IMG/VR virus record: IMGVR_UViG_2534681701_000012 | Length of the DNA stretch: 17,104 nt | Source: a virus | Taxonomy: Duplodnaviria > Heunggongvirae > Uroviricota > Caudoviricetes | Reading direction: 5' to 3' (one strand) | In this document: positions 4,005 through 16,800 of the stretch, piece after piece | How positions within the stretch are numbered: the first letter of the stretch is position 1 | How the letters are laid out: the number at the start of each line of letters is the position of its first letter | Position numbers and translations under genes: made by a program | Notes under the pieces: model-generated | What the model saw: only the letters and a program-made list of their open reading frames with translations | Database searches by the model: none | What the model was told of the DNA's origin: nothing

Positions 4005-4193
4005 TTATCCAGCCGGTGTTTCGTTATTCAGGTACAGCGATACTTTTTTTAGCGGGAGGCATTCACCAGAAATTTTTTGCTCGTCTCTTGCCTGGAGGCA
4101 GGATTCTTTACTTGCATAAATTCCGGTAATCACATTCTGTGATTCACCCGTTATAAGAAAAACCGTCATCATCAGTGCAAATGCTGAAGTCAT
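4005..4193 (-). CDS. ydfD: YdfD-like small protein with hydrophobic N-terminus
   Basis: 62-aa ORF whose ATG overlaps the dicB stop (ATGA). N-terminal MTSAFALMMTVFLITGE is signal/TM-like. Position directly after dicB matches ydfD of the Qin prophage. Confidence 0.6.
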   Translation of the reverse strand: MTSAFALMMTVFLITGESQNVITGIYASKESCLQARDEQKISGECLPLKKVSLYLNNETPAG

Positions 4194-4378
4194 TGACGTT
4201 CTCCGAAAATACCAAGTTCAAGAAGAGCAATTCGGGAAAGTATGGAATTATCATTGAGCAGATAAGGCTCATATTTCCTCATATTAATGGCATCTTCAGT
4301 AAACTCCCGGTTACTGAGCAGAACACCAATATCAAAACAACCTTCAGACGTATTAACGTTTGGTAATAACGTTTCCAT
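4190..4378 (-). CDS. dicB: DicB-like cell-division inhibitor
   Basis: 62-aa ORF; N-terminus METLLPNVNTSEGCFDIGV...FTEDAIN closely matches my recollection of E. coli DicB (MKTLLPNVNTSEGCFEIGV...FTEDAIN). Lies downstream of the DicF-like element, as in the Qin dicB operon. Confidence 0.8.
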   Translation of the reverse strand: METLLPNVNTSEGCFDIGVLLSNREFTEDAINMRKYEPYLLNDNSILSRIALLELGIFGERQ

Positions 4379-4556
4379 TATCGCGTCCTCAACAATGAAT
4401 TTTGTGATGCAGTGCCTGGTGCCTCCAGGTGACGTTAACCAGTTAACAATTAACGCCGGATTAGTTGATGCTCGTTACGCCCGTAAAATACCGCCTTACT
4501 GCTTTAACTGTTCCGCGTGCGCATAGCCGCATTCACCGCATCACAAAATTCACTTT

Positions 4557-4596
4557 AAAAAGGGCGGATATCCGTTTCCGCCGAATCACCAGAAAA
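4557..4596 (-). ncRNA. dicF: DicF-like small RNA (short variant) ending in an intrinsic terminator
   Basis: Minus strand reads UUUCUGGUGAUUCGGCGGAAACGGAUAUCCGCCCUUUUU. The 5' UUUCUGGUGA and 3' CCGCCCUUUUU match the ends of K-12 DicF as I recall it. 6-bp stem GGCGGA/UCCGCC with an 8-nt loop plus U-run. The following sequence toward dicB also looks like the K-12 dicF-dicB spacer. Ends approximate. Confidence 0.6.
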
Positions 4597-4897
4597 GTGA
4601 TAACAGAGGGCGTTGCTGCGGGGTTGTCACTTAAGCGTATGGTCAACCTGACAACCCGGTGTCCTCAGCGGGGAAGGAATAACCCCGCCATACTTACCGC
4701 CGCGCCATTTCGCGGATTGCCACAACCGGAAGCGCACGGTCGAATTAAATTTAACGACTACCTACAGAGAGACGAACTTCGCCGTGCGCTTTCGCGTTAT
4801 GCCCTGACTTTTCAGGGATATATCCTTTTCAGTAAACTGTCAGTGCCGGATTCTTATCCGTGTCCGGCGCACGCACTCTACCTCACCTGTGAATAAA

Positions 4898-5272
4898 TTA
4901 ATGATTAATTGATATTTTGTTGTTTGATTCAACTTTCCCATCGGATGTGTGATGCTTTAAATCACAGGAATTAATACTGCTTGCTGTAAAATGATTTTCA
5001 AGGGGAGCTATTCGAATCCCTTTCTTTTTCATTAACAAGCCAAATCCTTTATTAAGGATGTCCATTAATTCCAGGAAGTATTTTTCATGTAAATCCTGGT
5101 TATCAGAGAGCTGATTCTCTTCGCACAGACCGATAAAGGCACGACGCACGTTACCGGATATAGTATCGATGGTTTCTTTTTCTACGGTACTCAGGTCAAG
5201 AGTCGCCGGTTGGGAACGAACTATATTCGCTGCCATTTCCTGGAATTGCATTGGTAAATCTTTAAATTCCAT
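4898..5272 (-). CDS. Hypothetical protein inserted between ydfC-like and dicF-like
   Basis: 124-aa ORF with GAGG Shine-Dalgarno 7 nt upstream of the ATG, starting 22 nt after the ydfC-like stop. The 3' third is AT-rich (about 4900-5060). No recognisable motif. Confidence 0.6.
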   Translation of the reverse strand: MEFKDLPMQFQEMAANIVRSQPATLDLSTVEKETIDTISGNVRRAFIGLCEENQLSDNQDLHEKYFLELMDILNKGFGLLMKKKGIRIAPLENHFTASSINSCDLKHHTSDGKVESNNKISINH

Positions 5273-5294
5273 TATTAGCCTCGTTGGTTAGCTA

Positions 5295-5513
5295 TTAACG
5301 CGGGTATGTAATCATTCTGGCAATGCTTAATGCCGCTGCTTTTTCCAGATTAGTGATATCCTGCTCCAGAGCGGACAGATTTTCAGCCTGCTTAGCCCTG
5401 GCTTCATTGGCCCATTTCAGATCCTGCGCTGCATTAATTTTCTGGTGCATCCACTCATAAAGTTCATCATCGGTATAGTCTGGCGCGATGATGACGGGTT
5501 CTCGTTTCTGCAT
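5295..5513 (-). CDS. ydfC: YdfC-like small protein
   Basis: 72-aa ORF third in the leftward operon; size and position match ydfC of the Qin dicB operon. Predicted coiled-coil-like sequence. Confidence 0.65.
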   Translation of the reverse strand: MQKREPVIIAPDYTDDELYEWMHQKINAAQDLKWANEARAKQAENLSALEQDITNLEKAAALSIARMITYPR

Positions 5514-5542
5514 ACTGATTCCTCGCGGTGCTGTTTCGCTTA

Positions 5543-5671
5543 TCAGCCGTTAGATTTTGCCGAACTGGAAAGCGCCTGTTTAAATTCGTTGAAGCTGAGA
5601 GCTTCTTCGCCTTCGGCAAGACCTTCGAAGTATTCTTCGTAAGCCTTTTCCATGATTGTGTCGAAATCCAT
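5543..5671 (-). CDS. ydfB: YdfB-like 42-aa protein
   Basis: Hand translation gives MDFDTIMEKAYEEYFEGLAEGEEALSFNEFKQALSSSAKSNG; it is below the ORF-track size cut-off. ATG lies 1 nt after the ydfA-like stop. Length and sequence match my recollection of YdfB. Confidence 0.6.
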   Translation of the reverse strand: MDFDTIMEKAYEEYFEGLAEGEEALSFNEFKQALSSSAKSNG

Positions 5672-5672
5672 A

Positions 5673-5828
5673 TCACTCACCTGAGTTTCTTTCCAGCCAG
5701 CGACGGGCACCATTTTCGGTTTTAAACGTTTTGCTTTTGGTATACGTCATCGCGGTGAATGTGCCCTCCTGGTTGGGAAACACGCCGTACACCAGAGATT
5801 CGTTGTTGCCAAGCTCGATAGTATCCAT
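5673..5828 (-). CDS. ydfA: YdfA-like 51-aa protein
   Basis: Hand translation gives MDTIELGNNESLVYGVFPNQEGTFTAMTYTKSKTFKTENGARRWLERNSGE; below the ORF-track cut-off. First gene of the leftward operon after the repressor, as in Qin. Confidence 0.65.
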   Translation of the reverse strand: MDTIELGNNESLVYGVFPNQEGTFTAMTYTKSKTFKTENGARRWLERNSGE

Positions 5829-6024
5829 GCTGACCTCATTTCCCCTTAACGCCGGGTGGCGGAACTAAAACCTACAGCGCCGTGCTGTTCTTGATAGAGA
5901 TATTAGTAACGCGGATATTTTAAGTCAACAGTATGGCGTATGATATTTTTGATTTGGTAACTATGTAAATGTTTTTTCAAGGGAAAAATATTAGTTATAC
6001 AGCTGATTTGCAGAAGTTATGGCA

Positions 6025-6057
6025 CAAAAAAACCGACTAAGACGTCGGTTTTTTTGT
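6025..6057. terminator. Bidirectional intrinsic terminator downstream of the repressor gene
   Basis: AAAAAAACCGAC-taagac-GTCGGTTTTTTT: 7-bp GC-containing stem flanked by an A-run and a T-run, 25 nt beyond the repressor stop. Confidence 0.55.
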
Positions 6058-6081
6058 TGTGGATGGGGTAGTGAGCGGTGG

Positions 6082-6543
6082 CTACTGGTTACGTTTCTTT
6101 AGTGCCAGCATGTTCTCGAAGGCTTCCTCGTAGAGCTTGTTTAGTCCACGTAGCTGGTTAAGGAGTTTGGCTTTTTCTGACGCAGGTAGAATCTCGAAGA
6201 GGTTAAGTAACTCTGCCTGTTCTTCATTGACCAGCCTCCATCCTTTGCCTGAAAAGTTATCATCATAAGTATCTGATGATCTTACATAATTCATTAAGTC
6301 TTTAAGGTCTTCTCGAATGTCCTCTGGTTTTACCTTTAACAGAGCCGCAAATTTTAGCGCAGCGTCGGTATTTACCGGTATCTTGCCGTTCAGATACTGG
6401 CTAACGGTGCCTTGAGATTCGAATCCCAACAACTCAGCCGCCAGCTCTTGAGTCAGCTTCAGCTCTTTTTTTCTTGCATTCCATGCGGCTTTTAAATTCT
6501 TGCTCGCTTCTGGAGTTGCAATCACTTCGCGTGTTTTTTTCAT
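6082..6543 (-). CDS. CI/DicA/RacR-like HTH repressor (XRE family)
   Basis: 153-aa ORF with HTH LTQELAAELLGFESQGTVSQYLNG, transcribed divergently from a Cro-like gene across a 100-bp AT-rich intergenic region. Confidence 0.85.
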   Translation of the reverse strand: MKKTREVIATPEASKNLKAAWNARKKELKLTQELAAELLGFESQGTVSQYLNGKIPVNTDAALKFAALLKVKPEDIREDLKDLMNYVRSSDTYDDNFSGKGWRLVNEEQAELLNLFEILPASEKAKLLNQLRGLNKLYEEAFENMLALKKRNQ

Positions 6544-6644
6544 ACATAGAGTTTATTTGTTTTACCAATATTATCAAAGATAGTCTGGCTATTGATCTTT
6601 AAAATTAGCGGGGCTAATATTTGCTCGAGGCATAACGTAGAAGG
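6544..6644. promoter_or_regulatory. Divergent promoter/operator region of the immunity switch
   Basis: AT-rich 101-bp spacer between divergent repressor and Cro-like genes. Contains TATCAAAGATAG and CTATTGATCTTTAAAATTAG, related to TTGATAGAGATAT at 5891-5903. Operator assignment is inferential. Confidence 0.45.
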
Positions 6645-6926
6645 TTGGCTATGAACTTAAGAGACTATTTAAAAGAGAAACATATCACCCAGCTACAGTT
6701 TGGGAAGCTAACGGGTTTATCTCAGGTGCATGTAAGTCGAGTGCTGGGGGGCTATGAAAGATTCAGCCCTGAAAAAGCATTACGTGTTGCTGAAGTAACG
6801 AATTTCGAGGTTACACCTCATGAACTCCGGCCTGATATTTACCCGAATCCAACCGACGGCTTACCTGTTGGATTCAAGGCTAACACACCAAATGCATCGG
6901 AGTTGATTCATGAAAATCAGGCATGA
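6645..6926 (+). CDS. ydaS: Cro/YdaS-like HTH protein
   Basis: 93-aa ORF with HTH LQFGKLTGLSQVHVSRVLGG, first gene of the rightward operon, overlapping the next gene start. Resembles Rac YdaS. Confidence 0.75.
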   Translation: MAMNLRDYLKEKHITQLQFGKLTGLSQVHVSRVLGGYERFSPEKALRVAEVTNFEVTPHELRPDIYPNPTDGLPVGFKANTPNASELIHENQA

Positions 6927-7335
6927 GCACATCCGCATGGCGATGAATGCCTGGGCGCATCCGGACGGTGAAAAAGTTCCGGCAGCTGAAATAACCCGGG
7001 CTTATTTTGAGCTTGGTATGACGTTCCCGGAATTATATGACGACAGCCATCCGGAAGCCCTGGCTCGCAATACCCAGAAAATTTTCCGCTGGGTGGAGAA
7101 AGACACTCCTGATGCGGTTAAAAAAATTCAGGCGTTGTTACCAGCGATCGAAAAAGCAATGCCGCCTCTGCTGGTGGCCCGAATGCGCAGCCACAGTTCA
7201 GCTTATTTTCGGGAGCTGGTGGAGACGCGGGAACGACTGGTGAGAGACGCTGATGATTTTGTCGCAGTGGCGATCGCTGGTTTCAACCAGATGAATCGTG
7301 GTGGCCCGGCGGGAAATATTGTGGTTGTGCATTGA
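6910..7335 (+). CDS. ydaT: YdaT-like protein (CII-position regulator/toxin family of Rac-type prophages)
   Basis: 141-aa ORF; GGAG Shine-Dalgarno 7 nt upstream. Sequence MKIRHEHIRMAMNAWAHPDGEKVPAAEITRAYFELGMTFPELYDD matches my recollection of Rac YdaT. Confidence 0.75.
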   Translation: MKIRHEHIRMAMNAWAHPDGEKVPAAEITRAYFELGMTFPELYDDSHPEALARNTQKIFRWVEKDTPDAVKKIQALLPAIEKAMPPLLVARMRSHSSAYFRELVETRERLVRDADDFVAVAIAGFNQMNRGGPAGNIVVVH

Positions 7336-7406
7336 CTGACAATATTCATACCGGACCGCTTCCGGTAATTCGTGAGTAAAAAGATTCGGTATCAGAAGAG
7401 GTGAGT

Positions 7407-8447
7407 ATGGCTAATGCCTGGCTCAGGTTATGGCATGACATGCCAAATGATCCTAAGTGGCGAACAATTTCCAGGGTGTCAGGACAGCCAATTGCAACAG
7501 TGATGGCGGTGTATATCCACCTTCTGGTGAGCGCGTCACGAAATGTCACGACATGTCACGGCGTGTCACTACGTGGTCACATTGATGTCACGACGGAAGA
7601 TTTAGCAAGTGCGCTTGATGTGACGGAAGAAGTAATTGATTCAATTTTACAGGCAATGCAGGGGCGGGTACTTGATGGAGATTTAATCACCGGATGGGAA
7701 AAACGCCAGGTACTGAAAGAGGACAATGGCAACGTTTCACAAACCGCGAAATCCCCGGCAGAGCGCAAGAGAGCGCAGCGCGAGAGGGAAAAATTACGAA
7801 AACAGAATGAGGGGTGTCACGACGAGTCACGCATATGTCACGACATGTCACGACGAGTCACGACAGATAAAGATACAGATAAAGAATTAAACCCCACACA
7901 TAACGCGCACGTGCGCGAGAGTGCTCCGACCAGTGAGTCGAGTGGTACGCCGTTGCAGGCAGCAGAACCTGCATCCCTGGATGGACTGAGCGAACCCATC
8001 GGGAAATTTCCGATGGTCGATGACTGGCATCCGTCGCCGGATTTTCGACGACGGGCTGCGTTGTGGGGGATGGCTTTGCCGGAGCCGGAATTTACACCTG
8101 CTGAACTTGCCGCTTTCTGGGACTACTGGGCAGCGGAGGGGAAAGTTTTCACGCAGGTTCAGTGGGAGCAGAAATTCGCCCGTCACGTAAATCACGTCAG
8201 GGCGCAGGTTAAGCCAGTCAGCAAGGGGGTAAACCATGCAGCAGCACCAGGTGGCACCGCATCACGGGCAGTTCAGGAAATTCGGGCAGCACGTGAGCAG
8301 TGGGAACGTGAAAACGGATTTATCAGCGACGGAAACGGTCTGGAAGCTGTGGGAACTCATGGGGGAGGTTTATTCGAACCGCTGGACCCAGAAGAACGGG
8401 GCCGCACCTTCGAAGCTCTGGATTGCACAGATTGGCGCGATGACTGA
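7407..8447 (+). CDS. Replication initiator / replisome organiser (functional analogue of lambda O)
   Basis: N-terminal MANAWLRLWHDMPNDPKW fits the phage replisome-organiser N-terminal motif. Iteron clusters lie inside the ORF and a P-like gene follows. Start taken at ATG 7407 (GAGGTG Shine-Dalgarno) rather than GTG 7401. The 3' end is uncertain because of the long overlap with the next gene. Confidence 0.75.
   Translation: MANAWLRLWHDMPNDPKWRTISRVSGQPIATVMAVYIHLLVSASRNVTTCHGVSLRGHIDVTTEDLASALDVTEEVIDSILQAMQGRVLDGDLITGWEKRQVLKEDNGNVSQTAKSPAERKRAQREREKLRKQNEGCHDESRICHDMSRRVTTDKDTDKELNPTHNAHVRESAPTSESSGTPLQAAEPASLDGLSEPIGKFPMVDDWHPSPDFRRRAALWGMALPEPEFTPAELAAFWDYWAAEGKVFTQVQWEQKFARHVNHVRAQVKPVSKGVNHAAAPGGTASRAVQEIRAAREQWERENGFISDGNGLEAVGTHGGGLFEPLDPEERGRTFEALDCTDWRDD
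7535..7893. repeat. Putative replication origin: two iteron clusters plus AT-rich tract inside the O-like gene
   Basis: GTCAC(G/T) repeated 6 times at 7535-7591 and 5 times at 7815-7861, spaced 10-11 bp (one helical turn). Second cluster is followed by AGATAAAGATACAGATAAAGAATTAAA. Confidence 0.6.
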
Positions 8448-8901
8448 GCAGCAAATCCGACAGGTCTGCCGCCAGTGCATGGACCGCTGCCGGGCGGGTG
8501 AAACATGGCCTCCGGACCTGGCTGAGTTTGTGGCGCTGATTTCGGAGAGCGGAGCCAATCCATTCGGTCTGACGGTGGATGCTGTGATGGAGGAGTACCG
8601 CCGCTGGCGCAATGAGTCCTGGCGATATGACGGAAGTGATAAGTACCCGTGGCCTCAGCCTGTGCTGTATCACATTTGCCTTGAGATGCGTTCAAAGGGG
8701 ATTGAGCGCCAGATGACCGAAGGGGAATTAAAACGGCTTGCAGAACGGCAGCTGACGAAATGGGCAAAGCATGTTAGTAACGGCCTGAGCGTTCCGCCAG
8801 TCCGGCGACAACTGGCGGCACCCAAACGCCCGTCGGGGCCAACGCCAATTGAGTTGCTGAAACAGGAATATGAACGCCGGAAAGCGGCTGGGTTTGTTTG
8901 A
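8236..8901 (+). CDS. Lambda P-like replicative helicase loader
   Basis: 221-aa ORF; C-terminal half (YPWPQPVLYHICLEM...GELKRLAERQLTKWAKHV) aligns by eye with lambda P (YPWKSNAHYWLVTNL...AELRRKAADELVHM). AAGGGGG Shine-Dalgarno 7 nt upstream of ATG 8236. Overlaps the O-like ORF by 212 nt; alternative starts at 8359 or 8440. Confidence 0.8.
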   Translation: MQQHQVAPHHGQFRKFGQHVSSGNVKTDLSATETVWKLWELMGEVYSNRWTQKNGAAPSKLWIAQIGAMTEQQIRQVCRQCMDRCRAGETWPPDLAEFVALISESGANPFGLTVDAVMEEYRRWRNESWRYDGSDKYPWPQPVLYHICLEMRSKGIERQMTEGELKRLAERQLTKWAKHVSNGLSVPPVRRQLAAPKRPSGPTPIELLKQEYERRKAAGFV

Positions 8902-8933
8902 GTTGAGAAGTAATTTTTACCGGGAGGAAATTT

Positions 8934-9687
8934 ATGGAGACTGTTTTTGACGCACTGAAAGCGATGGGAAAAGCCACGTCGGTAGAGCTGGCTGCGCGAC
9001 TTGATATCAGTCGTGAAGAAGTGCTGAACGAACTATGGGAACTGAAAAAGGCTGGTTTCGTTGATAAAAGCGCGTACACCTGGCGTGTGGCTGATAACAA
9101 CGTTCAGCAGGAACAGCCAGCGCAGGCAGAACTGCCGGAAGAAACCACCACAGCAACAGTAGCGAAAATCTCAGAGTGCGATTTAACCGCAACGATTGAA
9201 CAACGCGGACCACAAACGGCGGATGAACTGGCTACGTTTTTTCGGCATCACATCACGCAAAGTGGCTTCAACGCTGGCAATGGCAATCAGTAAAGGTCGT
9301 CTGATTCGCGTTAATCAGAACGGTAAATTTCGTTACTGCATGCCGGGCGATAATTTACCAGCAGAGCCGAAAGCTGCATCGGTAGCGGAAACTGATGGTA
9401 AAGCCTTTCCTCAGCCAGCCGGTGTTGCGTTACCAGTACTGGAAGCTGCAACACAGGAAGATATTAAAACCGAAACTGTGGCGGACATTGTGCAGTCGTT
9501 GCCATCGTTTACTGAAACGCAAGCGGATAACCTGATTTTACCATCGCTGCATATAGCAAATCGTGAACTGCGTCGGGCGAAAAGTCATGTCCAGAAGTGG
9601 GAACGAGTCTGCACCGCGCTGCGGGAGCTGAACAAGCACCGGGATATTCTTCGGGATATTACCGCGACCGGAGAGCTGCAGCGGTGA
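8934..9687 (+). pseudogene. Tandem winged-helix protein gene split by a 1-nt frameshift in a T6 run (possibly DUF1627-type)
   Basis: ORF 8934-9293 (GGGAGG Shine-Dalgarno) and ORF 9196-9687 overlap in different frames. Reading through T6 at 9237-9242 as T5 joins ...TADELATFF to [23 protein letters not shown], a second copy of the N-terminal wHTH-like segment [30 protein letters not shown]. Fused product would be about 251 aa. Confidence 0.55.
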
Positions 9688-10001
9688 GTGGCTGGAAGAA
9701 GTGGTACGAGGCTGAAATCATGATACTCCGGCAGTGTGCGGGAACGATGACGGTCGAAAGCATTGGGAGGCTGACCGGTCGTACAGGTGATGCTGTCAGA
9801 ACGAAAGCGCGGGAACTGGGTGTCAGCCTGATGTTACGGGGTGATTATCACCAGTCAACAAAATATCCGCAGAGTGATATTGAACTGGCGCGACAGCTGC
9901 ATCAGCGTGGCGTACCCAGGAGAGAAATCGCCAGAAAATTTGGAATGCCGTTGCGCACAGTGAATAACTACGTTTATTTCGACAGGAGAGTTCAGGAGTG
10001 A
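9684..10001 (+). CDS. Small HTH-containing protein
   Basis: Likely starts at GTG 9684 overlapping the upstream stop (GTGA), with GGAG upstream; the track ATG at 9597 lies inside the previous gene. C-terminal [32 protein letters not shown] is HTH-like. Confidence 0.5.
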
Positions 10002-10294
10002 GGGTGAGAGTTTATATTGCCGGTCCAATGACCGGGTATAAAAATTTCAACCGTGAGGCGTTCCACAAGGCGGAAGAGGAACTGAAACGGGAAGGGCATA
10101 CAGTCTTGAACCCGGCAGTACTTCCGGATGGGCTGACACAGCCGCACTACATGGATATTTGCATGGCAATGATTCGTTGTGTGGATGCGATTTACATGCT
10201 GAAAGGCTGGCAGCGGTCAGCAGGTGCTAAGGCAGAACTGGCGCTGGCGGAGAAACTGGGGCATGCAGTTATTTTCCAGGAGGAGGTACAGTGA
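9998..10294 (+). CDS. DUF4406-like protein (nucleoside 2-deoxyribosyltransferase-like fold, by recollection)
   Basis: 98-aa ORF, GTG start overlapping the upstream stop; N-terminal VYIAGPMTG is a Rossmann-like glycine-rich motif. Family name from memory only. Confidence 0.6.
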   Translation: MRVRVYIAGPMTGYKNFNREAFHKAEEELKREGHTVLNPAVLPDGLTQPHYMDICMAMIRCVDAIYMLKGWQRSAGAKAELALAEKLGHAVIFQEEVQ

Positions 10295-10566
10295 ATATCG
10301 ACGCAACAATGACGATTGGTACGGCCCTCAATACGGGGTTGGCGCTTCCTGGTTGGTGCTACATCATGTTCTGCTCATGGCGGTGGCTGTCACTGATGTT
10401 ACTGAAAGAATGGAATAAACGCTGTAAACAGACGCAGCGGCAGAAGGCAATGAATGCGTTTTTTGAGACCTTCGATATTGACAGTATAGAACCAGGAGAG
10501 CCAGCTCGCGTGATTAGCAGAGGTGACGTTGTAATTCTTGTATACCGGAGTGAAGAGAAAGCATAA
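10291..10566 (+). CDS. Small predicted membrane protein
   Basis: 91-aa ORF with GTG start overlapping the upstream stop (GTGA); hydrophobic segment IGTALNTGLALPGWCYIMFCSWRWLSLMLL. Confidence 0.45.
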   Translation: MNIDATMTIGTALNTGLALPGWCYIMFCSWRWLSLMLLKEWNKRCKQTQRQKAMNAFFETFDIDSIEPGEPARVISRGDVVILVYRSEEKA

Positions 10567-10671
10567 TCCAAATCTGAATAATTAAATCCAGCACTGTAAA
10601 TAAAATTTAATCCTTAACCGGAGGGATTTCTGCACCCTCAGAACATCAGGAGGCCGCCTGAAAGGGCGGTA

Positions 10672-11094
10672 ATGAAAATGACTGAATTAACAAAAGAACA
10701 ATTAATCGAAGAAGCCAAATTAAAAATAGCGATTACGAAATGCCACCCCAATTCAGGGATGGCGCGAGTAGAGGGCGAGTTATTCAAAATTGCACTGGCA
10801 TCGCTGGAAGCAGAGCCGATAGCGTGGCGATATCGCTACGTGAAAAAAGGTGTTATGGACTCTCAGGGGGAGTTGTGGGTTGGTGACTGGAAATATGTAC
10901 CGAAAAAAGAGGATTGTAACGACAGGCCGAACTATGAAATTCAGGCCTTATTCACTGCCCCACCAGTCCCGGTTACATCAGAAGAACTGGTTAAAGCTGT
11001 GCACTTTTATGAACAACTAAAACGCGAAAATCCACCAGCATCCGGCAACCAGATTAATGGGTTAACTATGCCGGTTAAACGACCAGCCGACTGA
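10672..11094 (+). CDS. Hypothetical nin-region protein
   Basis: 140-aa ORF with AGGAGG upstream (separated from the ATG by a hairpin) and normal composition. No motif recognised. Confidence 0.65.
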   Translation: MKMTELTKEQLIEEAKLKIAITKCHPNSGMARVEGELFKIALASLEAEPIAWRYRYVKKGVMDSQGELWVGDWKYVPKKEDCNDRPNYEIQALFTAPPVPVTSEELVKAVHFYEQLKRENPPASGNQINGLTMPVKRPAD

Positions 11095-11305
11095 AAAACG
11101 GAAACCTGATTACAGATTCCCAGATAAGGCAATGAGCTACCTGGCGTAGAGTGGGCTGATAAGTATGGGGAATGTTTTACGATGAATATTTAGACTAAAG
11201 AGTTTGTAACGCTATGTAAGTGATTTTTTCTGGTTTAGATATTTATATGTCCGGCCAAATTGAGGTGTGTTTAAATGTAATTGCACATTGATTGTAGGGG
11301 GAATA

Positions 11306-11485
11306 ATGAAAAACGCATTGCAGTTTTTGTTTGTTGCGTTCTGGTTGTTCGCATCATGTATGCCCATCATCTTCACAGCAAGGTATATGGAAAAAATTGA
11401 TGTTTTGATATTAATGTTTGGACATATAAATGCCCTTTTTTTAGGGGTGTTCATGGCGGTCACGTGCATTGAATACTGGCGGTAA
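11306..11485 (+). CDS. Small two-helix hydrophobic protein in AT-rich island
   Basis: 59-aa ORF from ATG 11306 with AGGGGGA Shine-Dalgarno; two predicted TM segments (LQFLFVAFWLFASCMPIIF and INALFLGVFMAVTCI). The ORF-track version (11267) starts upstream at a poorer site. Confidence 0.45.
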   Translation: MKNALQFLFVAFWLFASCMPIIFTARYMEKIDVLILMFGHINALFLGVFMAVTCIEYWR

Positions 11486-11744
11486 ATACAGCGAACGCTA
11501 TTGGTTTAGTTGGATATTTACTGTGCCGGACAAAAACGGTTTGCAGGGAAATCTTAGTTAAGTAGAATGACTGTGGGTGCTTGAGGCTATCTGTCTCAGG
11601 CATGAACACCAAAAGGCAGATAGAGAAAAGCCCCAGTTAACATTACGCGTCCGGCAAGACGCTTAACATTAATCTGAGGCCATATCTATGCTCTACACAC
11701 GTAGGTTAGCCTCTTACGTGCCGAAAGGCAAGGAGAAGCAGGCT

Positions 11745-11900
11745 ATGAAGCAGCAAAAGGCGATGCTAATCGCCCTGATCGTCATCTGTTTAACCGTCAT
11801 AGTGACGGCACTGGTAACGAGGAAAGACCTCTGCGAGGTACGAATCCGAACCGGCCAGACGGAGGTCGCTGTCTTCACAGCTTACGAACCTGAGGAGTAA
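11745..11900 (+). CDS. hok: Hok/Gef-family membrane toxin (HokD/RelF-like)
   Basis: 51-aa product MKQQKAMLIALIVICLTVIVTALVTRKDLCEVRIRTGQTEVAVFTAYEPEE has the Hok signature (TM helix, RK..LCE.R, EV..F.AYE). AGGAG Shine-Dalgarno 9 nt upstream. Confidence 0.85.
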   Translation: MKQQKAMLIALIVICLTVIVTALVTRKDLCEVRIRTGQTEVAVFTAYEPEE

Positions 11901-11970
11901 GAGACCGGGCGGGGGAGAAATCCCTCGCCACCTCTGATGTGTCAGGCATCCTCAACGCACCCGCACTTAA

Positions 11971-11996
11971 CCCGCTTCGGCGGGTTTTTGTTTTTA
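11971..11996 (+). terminator. Intrinsic terminator downstream of hok
   Basis: CCCGC-ttcg-GCGGG followed by TTTTTGTTTTT. Confidence 0.6.
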
Positions 11997-12119
11997 TTTT
12001 CAACGCGTTTGAAGTTTTAGATGGTGCCGGAATAGAATCAAAAATACTTAAGTAGCGCGCAGGGAGAAGAGGGATGGACCCCGAAGGGGAAGAGCTATTT
12101 ATCTGGAAGGATTCTGAAG

Positions 12120-12293
12120 ATGAAAATCGAAGAATTACGTGAAATTTTTAGTGAAGATGGCCTCTATGCTGTGCGCGTTGAGAATGGGGGTATTACCTAC
12201 ACAGCGTTAATTCCTGATGATCATGTAGTGTTATCTGTTGAGGCATTCATTGAATACTTGGAAAGACTCGGTTTCAAGGTAGTTCGGGAATAA
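12120..12293 (+). CDS. Hypothetical 57-aa protein
   Basis: Hand-translated ORF MKIEELREIFSEDGLYAVRVENGGITYTALIPDDHVVLSVEAFIEYLERLGFKVVRE with GGAAGG 9 nt upstream; below the track cut-off. Coding status uncertain. Confidence 0.35.
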   Translation: MKIEELREIFSEDGLYAVRVENGGITYTALIPDDHVVLSVEAFIEYLERLGFKVVRE

Positions 12294-12352
12294 GTTATAA
12301 TACGTGAGCCAGCCTGAACAACTGGCAACCTGCAGCGCCATTGGAGATGACA

Positions 12353-12625
12353 ATGGCGCATAATTTCAAATTTCGCAATTCTGATTCTGCCTTTGCCAGC
12401 AGGCACGGGTGGCGTTCTTACGCATTCAAATATGACTGGTATCAGCACGATCCCTGTACTGAAGAACAGGCCGAATGGCTGATTCATAACTACCGCAGAC
12501 GTGGATATGAGTTTAGGAAAGCCCTCACCCTCGATTATCGTCACTGGATAATCTACGTCAGACTCCCTTATTCCGAACGCCCACCGCGTCCGTCCCGCAC
12601 ATTCCAGCAACGCATCTGGAGGTAA
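12353..12625 (+). CDS. Hypothetical protein upstream of DUF968 gene (position analogous to rem in Qin)
   Basis: ORF likely starting at ATG 12353 (MAHNFKFRNSD...) with GGAG upstream. Its stop is 1 nt before the GTG start of the next gene. Confidence 0.55.
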   Translation: MAHNFKFRNSDSAFASRHGWRSYAFKYDWYQHDPCTEEQAEWLIHNYRRRGYEFRKALTLDYRHWIIYVRLPYSERPPRPSRTFQQRIWR

Positions 12626-12626
12626 C

Positions 12627-13673
12627 GTGCGGGTATTACTTCGACCTGTTCTGGTACCGGAACTCGGGCTGGTGATCGTTAAGCCGGGCCGTGAATCCAT
12701 GCCGGTATTCCACAATACCCGGGTACTGGTGGAGCCGGAACCGAAAAGCATGCGTAATCTGCCGTCCGGGGTCGTTCCTGCCGTTCGCCAGCCGCTGGCG
12801 GAGGATAAATCATTACTGCCATTTTTCAGCGACGAACGAGTGATTCGTGCTGCTGGTGGCGCTGGCGCATTGTCTGACTGGTTACTGCGCCATGTTAAAT
12901 CCTGCCAGTGGCCACACGGCGATTATCACCACAGTGAAACCGTCATTCACCGTTATGGTACCGGCGCAATGGTGTTGTGCTGGCACTGCGACAACCAGCT
13001 GCGCGACCAGACCTCCGAATCACTCGGGCAACTTGCTCACCAAAACCTGTCTGCATGGATGATTGACGTCATACGCCATGCAATGAATGGCTCGCAGGAA
13101 CGGGAATTATCGCTGGCTGAATTATCCTGGTGGGCGGTCCGCAATCAGGTGGCGGACGCGCTACCGGAAGCGGTATTACGTCGTTCGCTGGGGTTGCGTG
13201 CGGAAAAAATCCGCTCAATGTACCGTGAAAGCGACATCGTACCGGGAGAGCAGACCGCCACCAGCATACTGAAGCAGCGCACAAAAAATCTTGCGCCGCT
13301 GCCTCACGCCCACCAGCAAAACCCGCCACAGGAAGAGACGGTGGTCAGCATTGCCGTTGATCCTGAGTTTCCGGAATCTTTCATGAAACGACCTAAACGT
13401 CGCCGCTGGGTTAACGAGAAATACACACGCTGGGTGAAGACACAGCCGTGTGCGTGTTGTGGTAAGCCAGCCGACGATCCCCATCACCTGATTGGTCATG
13501 GTCAGGGCGGAATGGGGACAAAATCTCACGATATTTTCACGCTACCGCTGTGTCGGGAGCATCACAACGAGCTTCATGCGGATCCTCTGGCGTTCGAAGA
13601 AAAGCATGGTTCTCAGGTTGATTTAATTTTTCGTTTTCTTGATCACGCCTTTGCAACTGGCGTGCTTGGGTAA
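12627..13673 (+). CDS. DUF968-like protein with C-terminal HNH-like zinc-binding motif
   Basis: 348-aa ORF, GTG start with GGAGG Shine-Dalgarno 5 nt upstream. C-terminal CACCGKPADDPHHLIGHGQGG...LCREHHNELHADP resembles HNH/zinc-finger motifs of YdfU-like prophage proteins. Confidence 0.75.
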   Translation: MRVLLRPVLVPELGLVIVKPGRESMPVFHNTRVLVEPEPKSMRNLPSGVVPAVRQPLAEDKSLLPFFSDERVIRAAGGAGALSDWLLRHVKSCQWPHGDYHHSETVIHRYGTGAMVLCWHCDNQLRDQTSESLGQLAHQNLSAWMIDVIRHAMNGSQERELSLAELSWWAVRNQVADALPEAVLRRSLGLRAEKIRSMYRESDIVPGEQTATSILKQRTKNLAPLPHAHQQNPPQEETVVSIAVDPEFPESFMKRPKRRRWVNEKYTRWVKTQPCACCGKPADDPHHLIGHGQGGMGTKSHDIFTLPLCREHHNELHADPLAFEEKHGSQVDLIFRFLDHAFATGVLG

Positions 13674-13685
13674 AAGAGGTGACTG

Positions 13686-14060
13686 ATGCTCATAGATTTG
13701 GTTTTACCTTACCCGCCGACGGTGAACACTTACTGGCGACGCCGTGGCAGCACATATTTTATCTCGGAGGAGGGAAAGCGTTATCGCCGGGCTGTGGCGC
13801 TTATTGTTCGCCAGCAGCGGCTGAAATTAAGCCTGTCCGGAAGGCTGGCGATAAAGGTGATTGCAGAGCCACCGGATAAGCGTCGTCGCGACCTGGACAA
13901 TATCCTGAAAGCACCGCTGGATGCGCTGACGCATGCGGGAGTGTTAATGGACGATGAGCAGTTTGATGAAATCAATATCGTTCGTGGTCAGCCAGTATCT
14001 GGTGGACGTATGGGGGTGAAGATTTACCCCATAATGCATGAAGAGCAGGTCAAAAAATGA
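13686..14060 (+). CDS. rusA: RusA Holliday-junction resolvase
   Basis: 124-aa ORF; LPYPPTVNTYWRR and RRRDLDNILKAPLDALTHAGVLMDDEQ correspond to RusA motifs (K-12 RusA: [39 protein letters not shown]). Confidence 0.85.
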   Translation: MLIDLVLPYPPTVNTYWRRRGSTYFISEEGKRYRRAVALIVRQQRLKLSLSGRLAIKVIAEPPDKRRRDLDNILKAPLDALTHAGVLMDDEQFDEINIVRGQPVSGGRMGVKIYPIMHEEQVKK

Positions 14061-15660: not shown

Positions 15661-16082
15661 CCTCGCGCATACAGCCGGGCAGTGACGTCATCGTCTGCGC
15701 GGAAATGGACGAACAGTGGGGCTATGTCGGGGCTAAATCGCGCCAGCGCTGGCTGTTTTACGCGTATGACAGGCTCCGGAAGACGGTTGTTGCGCACGTA
15801 TTCGGTGAACGCACTATGGCGACGCTGGGGCGTCTTATGAGCCTGCTGTCACCCTTTGACGTGGTGATATGGATGACGGATGGCTGGCCGCTGTATGAAT
15901 CCCGCCTGAAGGGAAAGCTGCACGTAATCAGCAAGCGATATACGCAGCGAATTGAGCGGCATAACCTGAATCTGAGGCAGCACCTGGCACGGCTGGGACG
16001 GAAGTCGCTGTCGTTCTCAAAATCGGTGGAGCTGCATGACAAAGTCATCGGGCATTATCTGAACATAAAACACTATCAATAA
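15579..16082 (+). CDS. insB: IS1 InsB reading frame (expressed as InsAB' transposase by -1 frameshift)
   Basis: Open -1 frame overlapping the insA 3' end; contains the [22 protein letters not shown]...[10 protein letters not shown] region of IS1 transposase. Slippery A6C site at 15634-15642. Confidence 0.85.
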
Positions 16083-16098
16083 GTTAGAGTCATTACCG

Positions 16099-16800
16099 GC
16101 TACATCGACAGTAATTCCAGGAGATATCACCACGCTAAAGGGAGATGTCAGTAAAACTAAGGAAGATATTTCCTCAATTAACGGAAAAGTATCAACGCTT
16201 CAGACTGATATGACCAGTACAAAGCAGGATATCAGTACCAGATACACAAAAACTGAAGTTGATAATAAGCTGAAAAACAAACTGGAAGTGAATGCTTTGG
16301 AAAGCGGTAATTATGGTGGAGATTTTTACCCGCTGACTGGTCGTGAAGCATTTTATTTATGGAATTTGGGCACGACTACAGCGGCGGCAAACCTTTATCT
16401 TAATCCTGACCCTGCAATTTCGTCTGTACTGCGGTCAACATCGTCTATTCGCTATAAACATTCAGTAGAGACGATAGATTCAGAGCACGCCGATCTCATT
16501 TTCAAGATGCGCCCTGTGTGGTACAGGTCGCAATGCGAAAATGACAGGCGCGATTGGGGATTCTATGGATTGATTGCCGAGGAAGTAGGAGAAATTGCCC
16601 CTCAGTTTGTTCACTGGCGACCAGCCAACGAAGATGATGCACCGGAAACCATTTCCAGCAATGGCCTTGTTGCCGAAGGTGTAATGTACGAACGTCTGGT
16701 TGTTCCACTGATTCACCATATCCAGAAACTGACTGAAAGAGTTGATGAACTTGAGTCAGAATTGAAGTTGTTATCAACTTCCCAAAGCGATATCGGATAA
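16099..16800 (+). pseudogene. 3' fragment of a tail-fibre gene (C-terminal intramolecular-chaperone / S74-like domain)
   Basis: The frame is open from the IS1 right end with no start context. Product has tail-fibre-like heptad repeats (TLKGDVSKTKEDISSINGKVSTLQTDMTSTKQDIS) followed by a C-terminal domain (ESGNYGGDFYPLTGREAFYLWNLG...GLIAEEVGEIAPQFVHWR...ERVDELESELK) resembling auto-cleaving tail-fibre chaperone domains. Confidence 0.65.

Follow-up and report, generated by a model that had tools for sequence, protein, structure and literature searches.

The hok/sok system of plasmid R1, the founding member of its family, is plasmid-borne and acts by post-segregational killing. Systems of this type in lambdoid prophages are likewise already documented and experimentally studied, and a further one adds little that is new. 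In Sakai prophage 5, the Stx2 phage of E. coli O157:H7, hokW-sokW was shown to act as a type I toxin-antitoxin pair and to aid the release of the phage after induction (Takada et al. 2021, PMC8621323). Rem of the K-12 prophage Qin is an antirepressor of DicA that derepresses a DicA-controlled promoter 165-fold (Ragunathan et al., bioRxiv 10.1101/2023.04.14.536235 / PMC10448788).

The DNA analysed here, referred to as the window, is a stretch of 17,104 nt with a mean GC content of 48.6%. The region around 11100-12340 is best explained, with a probability of about 0.88, as a mosaic early-right ("nin") stretch of a Qin/Rac-like lambdoid E. coli prophage, in which a core of hok/mok/sok is followed downstream by a Rem-type gene and preceded by a decayed gene tail and an AT-rich block with a 59-aa ORF. 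Positions 10600-12700 are 99.9% identical to an annotated prophage adjoining potC in strain CEA106S, where the gene order is DUF4406, DUF4752, hypothetical, hokD, Rem fragment, hypothetical, DUF968, RusA. As a whole, the region is already known and ordinary, and the 59-aa protein is a modest lead. What the comparison demonstrates is homology, anatomy, RNA folds and co-occurrence. The features discussed are the following, each with its basis in parentheses.

6082-6543, minus strand: DicA-like prophage repressor of 153 aa (reading frame; C-terminal similarity to DicA)
10672-11094, plus strand: nin-region gene of 140 aa, PHROG 660, function unknown (phrog_660, E=2.4e-47)
11095-11185, plus strand: decayed, out-of-frame 3′ tail of the PHROG 660 gene (alignment to a 171-aa copy)
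11186-11555, no strand assigned: module A, the AT-rich block bearing the 59-aa ORF (GC 36.6% over 11186-11540)
11306-11485, plus strand: candidate two-helix small membrane protein of 59 aa (hydropathy, Shine-Dalgarno sequence, homologue)
11540-11568, plus strand: hok/mok promoter, -35 TTTGCA (11540-11545), 17-nt spacer, -10 TAGAAT (11563-11568) (promoter scan)
11575-11996, plus strand: predicted full-length hok mRNA (Rfam, fold, terminator)
11622-11731, minus strand: predicted sok antisense RNA gene, -35 TTGCCT (11731-11726), 17-nt spacer, -10 TAACCT (11708-11703) (sequence, fold)
11688-11900, plus strand: mok reading frame of 70 aa, an in-frame upstream extension of hok (ORF list)
11745-11900, plus strand: hok toxin gene, 51 aa, one transmembrane helix (Pfam, PHROG)
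11969-11986, plus strand: hok intrinsic terminator, followed by a T run (terminator scan)
12009-12038, plus strand: promoter-like site before the rem-type gene, TTGAAG, 18-nt spacer, TAGAAT (promoter scan)
12120-12293, plus strand: short Rem-family gene, 57 aa (phrog_340)

The original prediction saw in 11100-12340 a single AT-rich island, a horizontally acquired moron cluster of three membrane-active small proteins that could serve in superinfection exclusion or be type I toxins. When GC content was computed, the AT-rich character held for one piece of the span, 11186-11540, which at 36.6% is among the lowest 0.4% of 355-nt segments and has the lowest GC in the window (on a 300-nt scale, similarly AT-rich stretches lie at about 4100-5100, 5900, 6400-6550 and 16000-16200). 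It did not hold for the span as a whole, whose 44.5% is matched or undercut by 15% of equal-sized segments (15th percentile), nor for the hok locus (51.4%) and the hok coding sequence (52.6%), both of which lie above the window mean. Matches to phages and to E. coli break at about 11528-11555, 11990-11995 and 12187-12194. The region consists of four unrelated pieces that differ in history and GC content, rather than a single AT-rich island acquired horizontally. The sequence comparisons nevertheless support an accessory and mosaic character for part of the stretch, and in its favor the cluster has a membrane toxin (Hok), a hok/sok unit that is present or absent among related phages, and a 59-aa ORF with two hydrophobic helices and a strong Shine-Dalgarno sequence. 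Set against the range of GC between pieces (36.6% to 52.6%), their separate breakpoints and histories, the gene remnant at the left end and a third protein that is acidic and soluble and falls in the Rem family (see below), these points leave the moron cluster a very improbable explanation.

The supposed island also begins too early, as its first 85 nt are the frameshifted tail of the gene upstream. This PHROG 660 gene is a truncated version of a 171-aa gene; alignment with the intact copy in strain AR_0013 showed 4 nt deleted from the window copy, which also has a TAG in frame, and the frame +1 translation of 11095-11185, "...KAMSYLA*SGLISMGNVLR*", matches the C-terminus of the 171-aa protein, "KAMDYLKRNGLISVEDVLR*". 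Judged by this alignment, the tail belongs to the upstream gene and lies outside any island. The two motifs thought to recur in the region are present at 11248-11259 and 11522-11536, but their resemblance (a direct match at 18/25 positions) does not exceed chance, since 45% of dinucleotide-preserving shuffles contained a 25-mer match just as good, and a recurring functional element was rejected on this ground. Six proteins compared with the PADLOC models of defence-system proteins gave no match at E<=0.1, a further point against the moron cluster, and a search for a LexA box yielded just the core CTG-N10-CAG at 11476, at a frequency equal to chance.

The hok toxin was found as predicted. Its product matches Pfam HOK_GEF (PF01848, E=1.2e-23, 82.9 bits against a cut-off of 22) and phrog_251 (E=2.8e-33), has a single hydrophobic segment at residues 3-27, and is 100% identical to HokD (RelF) of K-12; PGAP names the toxin of the 99.9% identical CEA106S prophage hokD. 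Sequence anatomy makes 11540-11996 a complete type I toxin-antitoxin locus, hok/mok/sok, of the hokD/hokW type. The Rfam model RF01794 matches the plus strand at full length over 11575-11750 with 117 bits (gathering score 59), and its first position, 11575, falls 7 nt past the -10 hexamer of the hok/mok promoter. The 5′ element "tac" of the mRNA, GGGUGCUUGAGG (11575-11586), pairs with the 3′ element "fbi", CCUCAACGCACCC (11950-11962), in both the minimum-free-energy and the centroid fold (z = -6.7, with 0/100 shuffles as good), and phage Rac-SA53 bears a matching mok/hok annotation. On the opposite strand, the predicted Sok RNA would extend from about 11697 down to about 11622, with a long hairpin between a single-stranded 5′ tail and a U-rich tail; it folds with -29.7 kcal/mol (z = -4.1) and complements the mok start region. 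Because the Rfam "sok" model matches the strand of the hok mRNA, the ends given for Sok rely on its fold together with the hokW-sokW paper. Several of the hokW/sokW probes and primers in that paper (PMC8621323) match the window exactly or nearly, and the -10 region of sok here is the one that was mutated to silence sokW (PMC8621323).

Hok itself is supported as a type I toxin by these sequence likenesses, and we infer its toxicity and its antisense control, which would follow this scheme. The hok mRNA would start near 11575 and end at the terminator (11969-11996), and the pairing of its 5′ and 3′ elements would hold the full-length molecule in an untranslatable state. A short, unstable Sok, made from the other strand (about 11697 to 11622), would cover the start of mok and block its translation, and hence the coupled translation of hok. 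Once Sok synthesis stops, the 51-aa Hok would enter the inner membrane and collapse it. In the prophage, hok/sok would most likely aid host lysis upon induction, as with hokW-sokW, and it may also penalise loss of the element. With a promoter and a terminator of its own, presence in some related phages and absence from others, and sharp breakpoints, hok/sok has the features of a moron, its GC content of 51% being the one that is not atypical; sequence comparison thus supports its likeness to a self-contained inserted unit, and this much of the moron proposal stands. Over the 3′ end of hok, isrK matches with 24.9 bits, below its gathering score of 50, and as the IsrK locus of Gifsy-1 is laid out differently, no relation is claimed; a preprint on the Pas sRNA held nothing relevant to this locus.

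The 57-aa ORF downstream of hok lies where the original prediction had placed it, but its product, acidic (pI 4.6, net charge -6) and devoid of hydrophobic segments, is not membrane-active. This leaves two of the three ORFs as small hydrophobic proteins and already contradicts a cluster of three. A match to phrog_340 (E=1.4e-17) covers residues 1-56, and by its sequence the protein is a soluble, short member of the Rem antirepressor family, which in alignment equals the long Rem minus two internal segments. An AlphaFold model has a pLDDT of 80, and a fold search with it returned no PDB match with E below 0.1. The promoter-like site at 12009-12038 falls in a segment with 93-95% identity to the sequence that precedes full-length rem.

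In NCBI annotation this gene is a dead remnant of rem, its frame beyond codon 25 being accidental: PGAP marks only the first 25 codons as a Rem-fragment pseudogene ("incomplete, missing C-terminus"), and DNA homology to full-length rem indeed ends at about 12187. This is an improbable account of a frame that the PHROG profile follows almost to its last residue, that has 75 homologues, among them dozens of 54-58-aa forms down to 57% identity, including in Salmonella, and that ends at the same codon in an O157 variant even though TAA has become TGA there (dN/dS 0.42). The depositors of Rac-SA53 also annotated a Rem of 58 aa, and the short form is strictly associated with one class of repressor. 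That partner is the 153-aa protein encoded at 6082-6543, which resembles DicA of K-12 in its C-terminal part only; the same repressor and short Rem occur together in strain 118UI and in phage Rac-SA53 as well. Among viral contigs, short Rem accompanies a 153/154-aa repressor in 41 loci (26 distinct sequence pairs) and long Rem the 135-aa DicA class in 54 loci (21 distinct pairs), with no mixed pairing (Fisher p = 8e-14, the counts not being phylogenetically independent). In the phage collection, Rac-SA53 is the sole phage with a near-full-length match to short Rem, and also the sole one with a repressor of the 153-aa type. The short Rem is, to judge from these sequences, probably an antirepressor matched to the 153-aa DicA-like repressor. 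Its gene would be independent, with a promoter-like site of its own, and its product, presumed to have antirepressor activity, would inactivate that repressor.

Module A, the AT-rich block between the decayed tail and hok, was found in 1608 of 5426 complete E. coli genomes, nearly always with hok downstream and the PHROG 660 gene upstream. About 30% of complete E. coli genomes thus have its 59-aa ORF, and about 19% (1045 genomes) a second allele, 44% identical. The ORF is confined to E. coli/Shigella, is unannotated in RefSeq, where PGAP never calls it, has no match in PADLOC, PHROG, Pfam or NCBIfam, and a search for its sequence in the literature found nothing. Both properties first ascribed to it were borne out. 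The Shine-Dalgarno sequence is indeed strong, AGGGGGA at 11296-11302, 4 nt before the ATG, with an anti-Shine-Dalgarno duplex of -9.3 kcal/mol, the strongest among the starts compared. Two hydrophobic segments are present, at residues 4-25 and 31-58 (GRAVY 1.15), and an exhaustive HMMER search found a homologue (P0093), also of 59 aa and 44% identical, that AlphaFold models as a helical hairpin (H2-27, H30-58; pLDDT 77). The product is on this modelling a plausible two-helix membrane protein.

It may be asked whether the ORF is a gene at all, or a chance frame in an AT-rich spacer (11186-11540) that hitchhikes with hok and the upstream gene. Its length alone is non-significant, as 10% of shuffles yield an ORF at least as long; annotation and family libraries pass it by, it is restricted to E. 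coli/Shigella and shows no promoter of its own, and its within-allele polymorphisms are all nonsynonymous (8/8 in allele 1 and 3/3 in allele 2, 11/11 together), with no sign of constraint. The comparison of the two alleles, however, points the other way. At 59% nucleotide and 44% amino-acid identity, they have retained a common start, stop and length, free of indels, while their flanks align only with gaps; in the true frame dN is 0.45 and dS 2.4 (saturated), a dN/dS of about 0.2, against ratios of 0.5 and 1.05 in the shifted frames, which contain stop codons. The motifs SCxPII, MFGHxNAL and IExWR are kept in both, a Shine-Dalgarno sequence precedes both, with GGAGG in many haplotypes, and the second allele is intact in 15/15 loci of a prophage remnant whose neighbouring genes are broken. 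An exact 39-mer spanning the T7 run of the ORF is found in 1551/1565 complete-genome records (99.1%), so that the frame is intact across the run; frameshifted entries in protein databases had raised phase variation at this site, which was rejected for the same reason. A spurious frame is therefore the less favored account, doubtful while still carrying some weight, and the sequence evidence indicates that the 59-aa ORF is probably a real gene.

Other candidates in module A were set aside. The folds of both strands are unremarkable (z = -1.7 and -0.4) and Rfam gave no match, on which a structured RNA was rejected. An 85-aa ORF on the minus strand (11212-11469), labelled "hornerin" by two phage records, matches no family, and the second allele does not preserve it, which likewise favors the plus-strand frame. 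A divergent copy (L089) was regarded as an error-ridden assembly, with indels throughout, the neighbouring genes included. Among plasmids the 59-aa ORF occurs in 6 records only, all non-mobilizable, which are probably chromosomal fragments.

For the 59-aa gene, a crude and weak scan found no promoter or terminator of its own flanking 11306-11485, so that of the features of a moron only the composition is atypical. Nor did it display those of a type I toxin: there is no promoter or terminator on the minus strand and no antisense partner, the folds are ordinary and Rfam has no match. Since it has no promoter or terminator of its own and matches no family, nothing points to a moron, to a protein of superinfection exclusion or to another type I toxin beside Hok; of these proposed roles, that of type I toxin stands for hok. 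Its expression is presumed, and transcription would probably come solely from read-through from the early-right promoter.

The position of the gene beside hok allows a more specific suggestion, namely that its product acts with hok, for instance by modulating Hok or protecting against it at the membrane, and that module A and hok form one unit. The second allele sits at the Rac attachment site, shortly before a hok remnant, so that both known alleles directly precede hok or what is left of it; homology between the alleles extends about 40 nt beyond the stop codon toward hok, and module A supplies the -35 hexamer of the hok promoter (in phage mEp460, homology to hok starts between the -35 and -10 hexamers). 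On the other hand, many phages have hok/sok without module A, the block is linked just as tightly to the upstream gene, and linkage in a mosaic region may mean shared ancestry only, which together make a joint unit unlikely. Much the same small chance attaches to the fuller version, in which the ORF is genuine and its product is a small inner-membrane protein that evolves fast, has been linked to hok from before the divergence of the alleles, and modulates Hok or prophage lysis or exclusion at the membrane.

Within the mosaic nin stretch favored here, two genes merit attention. An unannotated, widespread gene for a small membrane protein beside hok is a candidate for small-protein screens. Short Rem genes are systematically marked as pseudogenes by annotation pipelines, yet form a conserved class; because this class pairs strictly with one class of DicA-like repressor, the specificity of antirepressor for repressor in Qin/Rac-like prophages is directly testable.

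Compared with the described systems, the window shares with plasmid R1 hok/sok the whole architecture, i.e., a toxin ORF, an overlapping mok, an antisense Sok over the mok start, a 5′-3′ fold-back and an intrinsic terminator, although HokW, a close relative of the toxin in the window, is just 44% identical to Hok of R1. The hokW-sokW pair likewise has a 51-aa Hok-family toxin in a lambdoid prophage, and its 3′ fold-back region, sok promoter and mRNA leader are near-identical; the two toxins diverge at the C-terminus (...YEPEE in the window versus ...DYESEK in HokW, as implied by a primer), the flanking genes differ too, and matches of the Sp5 type begin at about 11532, without module A. Phage Rac-SA53 (KU052037.1) has a 99.3% identical repressor, mok/hok and a short Rem labelled "Rem" by its depositors; this Rem (58 aa) is 68.5% identical to that of the window, module A with the 59-aa ORF is missing, and the gene after rem is not DUF968. 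In Qin of K-12, hok, rem, DUF968 (ydfU) and a Q-like gene follow one another downstream as in the window. The Qin Rem also comes after hok and shares the upstream segment, and its N-terminal 25 residues are 76-80% identical with an alignable C-terminal helix, but it is long (83 aa versus 57 aa); two internal segments of it are missing from the short form, whose partner, the 153-aa repressor, is DicA-like at the C-terminus only. The Hok proteins of the window and of K-12 hokD (relF) are identical, while homology between the two loci starts at 11731, just 14 nt ahead of the hok ATG. The K-12 gene follows relBE without a mok/sok control region, and therefore the window keeps a region missing from K-12: the same toxin, here in a complete locus with its control region intact.

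The three small ORFs and the two motifs that had drawn attention to 11100-12340 lie where the original prediction placed them. The single island that it proposed resolved into four pieces with separate breakpoints, since alignments to a phage collection and to E. coli genomes break off at ~11528-11555, ~11990-11995 and ~12187-12194.

Pieces and features of the region
11095-11185: piece 1, a remnant, the tail of the gene upstream, now out of frame
11186-11555: piece 2 (module A), the AT-rich block with the 59-aa ORF
11306-11485 (+): 59-aa ORF
11540-11568: hok promoter (TTTGCA, 17 nt, TAGAAT), ending 7 nt before 11575
~11556-11996: piece 3, the hok/mok/sok unit
11688-11900: mok, the frame extending hok upstream
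11731-11726 and 11708-11703 (-): predicted sok promoter (-35 TTGCCT, 17-nt spacer, -10 TAACCT)
11745-11900 (+): hok
11969-11986: intrinsic terminator of hok
11996-12300: piece 4, the rem-type gene and the segment upstream of it
12009-12038: promoter-like site ahead of the rem-type gene (TTGAAG, 18 nt, TAGAAT), after the hok terminator
12120-12293 (+): 57-aa ORF

The AT-richness stood for one part only: 11186-11540 has 36.6% GC, within the lowest 0.4% of 355-nt windows and the sole extreme stretch of the region, whereas the whole span has 44.5% against 48.6% for the window (15th percentile among equal-sized windows) and the hok locus, at 51.4%, exceeds the window mean; several further 300-nt stretches elsewhere in the window fall below 42%. 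The repeated motif, an 18/25 direct match, is at chance level and carries no information, because an equally good match arose in 45% of the shuffles that kept the dinucleotides of the region. The description of small hydrophobic proteins fits the 59-aa ORF (two segments, GRAVY 1.15) and Hok (one segment), but not the 57-aa product, which has a pI of 4.6 and a net charge of -6, lacks any hydrophobic segment and belongs to a known antirepressor family. The proposal of three membrane-active proteins does not hold. Overall the result is ordinary, apart from two minor leads, namely that each Rem class goes strictly with one repressor class and that the unannotated 59-aa ORF is probably a gene.

The window represents an E. 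coli lambdoid prophage of the Qin/Rac-like type. Of 5426 complete E. coli genomes, 4986 matched at least some part of the query 10600-12700, and the prophage adjoining potC in strain CEA106S is 99.9% identical to it. The RefSeq gene order of that prophage (integrase, exonuclease, dicB, ydfABC, helix-turn-helix repressor, YdaS/YdaT, replication genes, DUF1627, DUF4406, DUF4752, hypothetical protein, hokD, a "hypothetical protein, incomplete" fragment, hypothetical protein, DUF968, RusA, Q-like gene) places the region under study in the early-right ("nin") region. The two prophages are collinear only over 4956-14027 (99.5% identity), and both window ends, before 4956 and beyond 14027, belong to other mosaic variants. 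The upstream gene (10672-11185, PHROG 660) is intact in strain AR_0013 (171 aa) whereas the window copy lacks 4 nt and has a TAG in frame, giving a 140-aa product that ends at 11094; in RefSeq the truncated gene is an ordinary hypothetical protein for CEA106S, but CFT073 and CE10 have it as a pseudogene with a frameshift.

Module A was found in 1608 of the 5426 E. coli genomes, almost always flanked upstream by the PHROG 660 gene and downstream by hok. Its 59-aa ORF, plausibly a two-helix membrane protein as originally described, had no family match in Pfam, PHROGs, NCBIfam or PADLOC, was never annotated in RefSeq, is called elsewhere only "hypothetical" or "membrane protein", and was confined to E. 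coli/Shigella in a search of one genome per species. The hypothesis that it is not a gene drew on the 10% of block shuffles that yield an ORF as long, on 22 haplotypes in which 8/8 polymorphic sites are nonsynonymous (neutral probability 0.18, or 0.05 for transitions only), and on a promoter/terminator scan that found neither element flanking it. It was weakened by an exhaustive HMMER search through 1.84 billion representative sequences, which recovered a second allele (P0093) of 59 aa with 44% identity, the start, stop and length unchanged and SCxPII, MFGHxNAL and IExWR in common. The DNA of the two alleles is 59% identical with zero indels, whereas the flanks align only with gaps; in the same comparison the adjacent hok and DUF1627 fragments show 81-84% identity. 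By the Nei-Gojobori method the ORF frame has dN=0.45 against a saturated dS=2.4 (ratio ~0.2), and the shifted frames, which contain stop codons, have ratios of 0.5 and 1.05. Allele 2 was intact in 15/15 loci examined and was modelled by AlphaFold as a two-helix hairpin (pLDDT 77), although its polymorphisms too are all nonsynonymous (3/3). An exact 39-mer across the T7 run occurs in 1551/1565 records, the frameshifted forms of the protein databases being rare in finished genomes. The antisense 85-aa ORF (11212-11469, -), annotated as "hornerin" in ON470612.1 and ON470619.1, matches no family and lacks conservation in allele 2, so that this annotation looks spurious. We put the probability that the 59-aa ORF is a real, fast-evolving small membrane protein at about 0.65-0.7; it is probably transcribed through read-through of the early-right operon, not as an independent unit. 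The sequence TACTGGCGGTAAATACAGCG (11474-11493), which overlaps the stop of the ORF and precedes the hok -35 by ~50 nt, was considered as a LexA box (CTG-N10-CAG core, 13/20 consensus matches) and rejected, such cores occurring here at about chance frequency.

Allele 2, also from E. coli, was present in 1045/5426 genomes, within the decayed remains of a prophage that lie between ttcA and uspF, i.e., the Rac attachment region, where its neighbours are pieces of an integrase and of DUF1627 and, 55 nt downstream, the broken C-terminal part of a hok gene. The copies located (829-1008 in locus L093, 3001-3180 in L095, and L136 of strain SK1144, between ttcA and uspF) are unannotated there too. The linkage of the 59-aa ORF to hok is older than the split of the two alleles; a functional tie between them is improbable, because many phages have hok/sok without the ORF.

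The NCBI pipeline marked only the first 25 codons of the 57-aa ORF, as an incomplete gene, and treated the short form as a pseudogene. This reading conflicts with a PHROG 340 match over residues 1-56 (E=1.4e-17) and with conserved short relatives, a protein search having returned 75 relatives that include 54-58-aa forms to 57% identity, some in Salmonella; aligned with the 83-87-aa forms, the short Rem forms lack just two internal segments. The O157:H7 variant likewise ends at the same codon, its stop having changed from TAA to TGA, with synonymous and conservative changes and a dN/dS of 0.42. In phage Rac-SA53 the 58-aa counterpart was named Rem by the depositors, and the evidence as a whole marks the 57-aa ORF as a real gene. 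AlphaFold modelled the protein as three strands and a helix (pLDDT 80), a model that matched none of the solved structures, and no LexA box was found.

The Rem of Qin is an antirepressor whose expression raised the DicA-repressed dicB promoter 165-fold and led to filamentation dependent on DicB and DicF (Ragunathan et al., bioRxiv 10.1101/2023.04.14.536235 / PMC10448788). The repressor of the window (6082-6543, 153 aa) is similar to DicA in the C-terminal part alone, and whether Rem class follows repressor class was asked in annotated genomes, the phage collection and IMG/VR viral contigs. Three annotated cases combined short Rem with a 153/154-aa repressor (window/CEA106S, 118UI, O157 F6294) and two combined long Rem with a 135-aa one (K-12, AR_0013). 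Rac-SA53 held both the sole near-full-length short-Rem match and the sole full match to the window repressor in the phage collection. In IMG/VR (loci L142-L301), short (57-58-aa) Rem accompanied the 153/154-aa class at 41 loci (26 distinct sequence pairs) and long (83-aa) Rem the 135-aa DicA-type class at 54 (21 distinct pairs), with zero mixed cases; Fisher's p = 8e-14 on distinct pairs overstates independence because the loci are related to one another, yet the pattern is clean. We conclude that the 57-aa ORF encodes the putative Rem-type partner of this prophage's repressor, with a predicted antirepressor activity.

The hok gene had been correctly spotted, its 51-aa product matching Pfam Hok/Gef (E=1.2e-23) and PHROG 251. 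Rfam RF01794 matched at full length at 11575-11750 (117 bits versus a gathering score of 59) on the hok-mRNA strand, and the model therefore describes the mRNA leader, not the antisense RNA itself. When 11575-11968 was folded, the first 12 nt (GGGUGCUUGAGG) paired with CCUCAACGCACCC at 11950-11962 (z = -6.7); such a 5'-3' fold-back holds full-length hok mRNAs inert. The predicted Sok RNA would start near 11697 on the minus strand and span the mok start codon (11688); it folds into a long hairpin with a U-rich tail ending near 11622 (z = -4.1). The -35 hexamer of the hok promoter lies in module A, and in phage mEp460 the hok-unit homology begins between -35 and -10, with another -35 in use. A mosaic joint thus falls inside the promoter (window 11540-11568 versus 2480-2520 of the compared locus, L002), and the same hok unit is driven by different -35 hexamers across phages. 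At the hok 3' end a sub-threshold Rfam match to isrK (11909-11990, 24.9 bits versus a gathering score of 50) spans the 3' hairpins and terminator; it is probably a generic resemblance, because the Gifsy-1 isrK locus differs in layout.

The core of the region is a known, experimentally studied locus type in a well-known position. Primers and probes of the hokW-sokW study match window sequences, several exactly, including the -10 region that its authors mutated to silence sokW (Takada et al. 2021, PMC8621323). In that study, HokW arrested growth and sokW RNA counteracted it, mitomycin C removed sokW RNA and gave HokW RecA-dependent access to the inner membrane, and deletion of the locus from Sakai prophage 5 halved phage release (PMC8621323). 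K-12 has dicF between ydfC and dicB, whereas 4300-5350 of the window, between the ydfC-like gene (5295-5513, -) and dicB (4190-4378, -), gave no DicF match even at E<=1; the only sRNA match there was a sub-threshold STnc100 (31 bits versus a gathering score of 47; 4346-4564, -). The 51-aa Hok is identical to K-12 HokD, but K-12 hokD stands behind relBE and its homology starts only at 11731, without the control region, which the window keeps.
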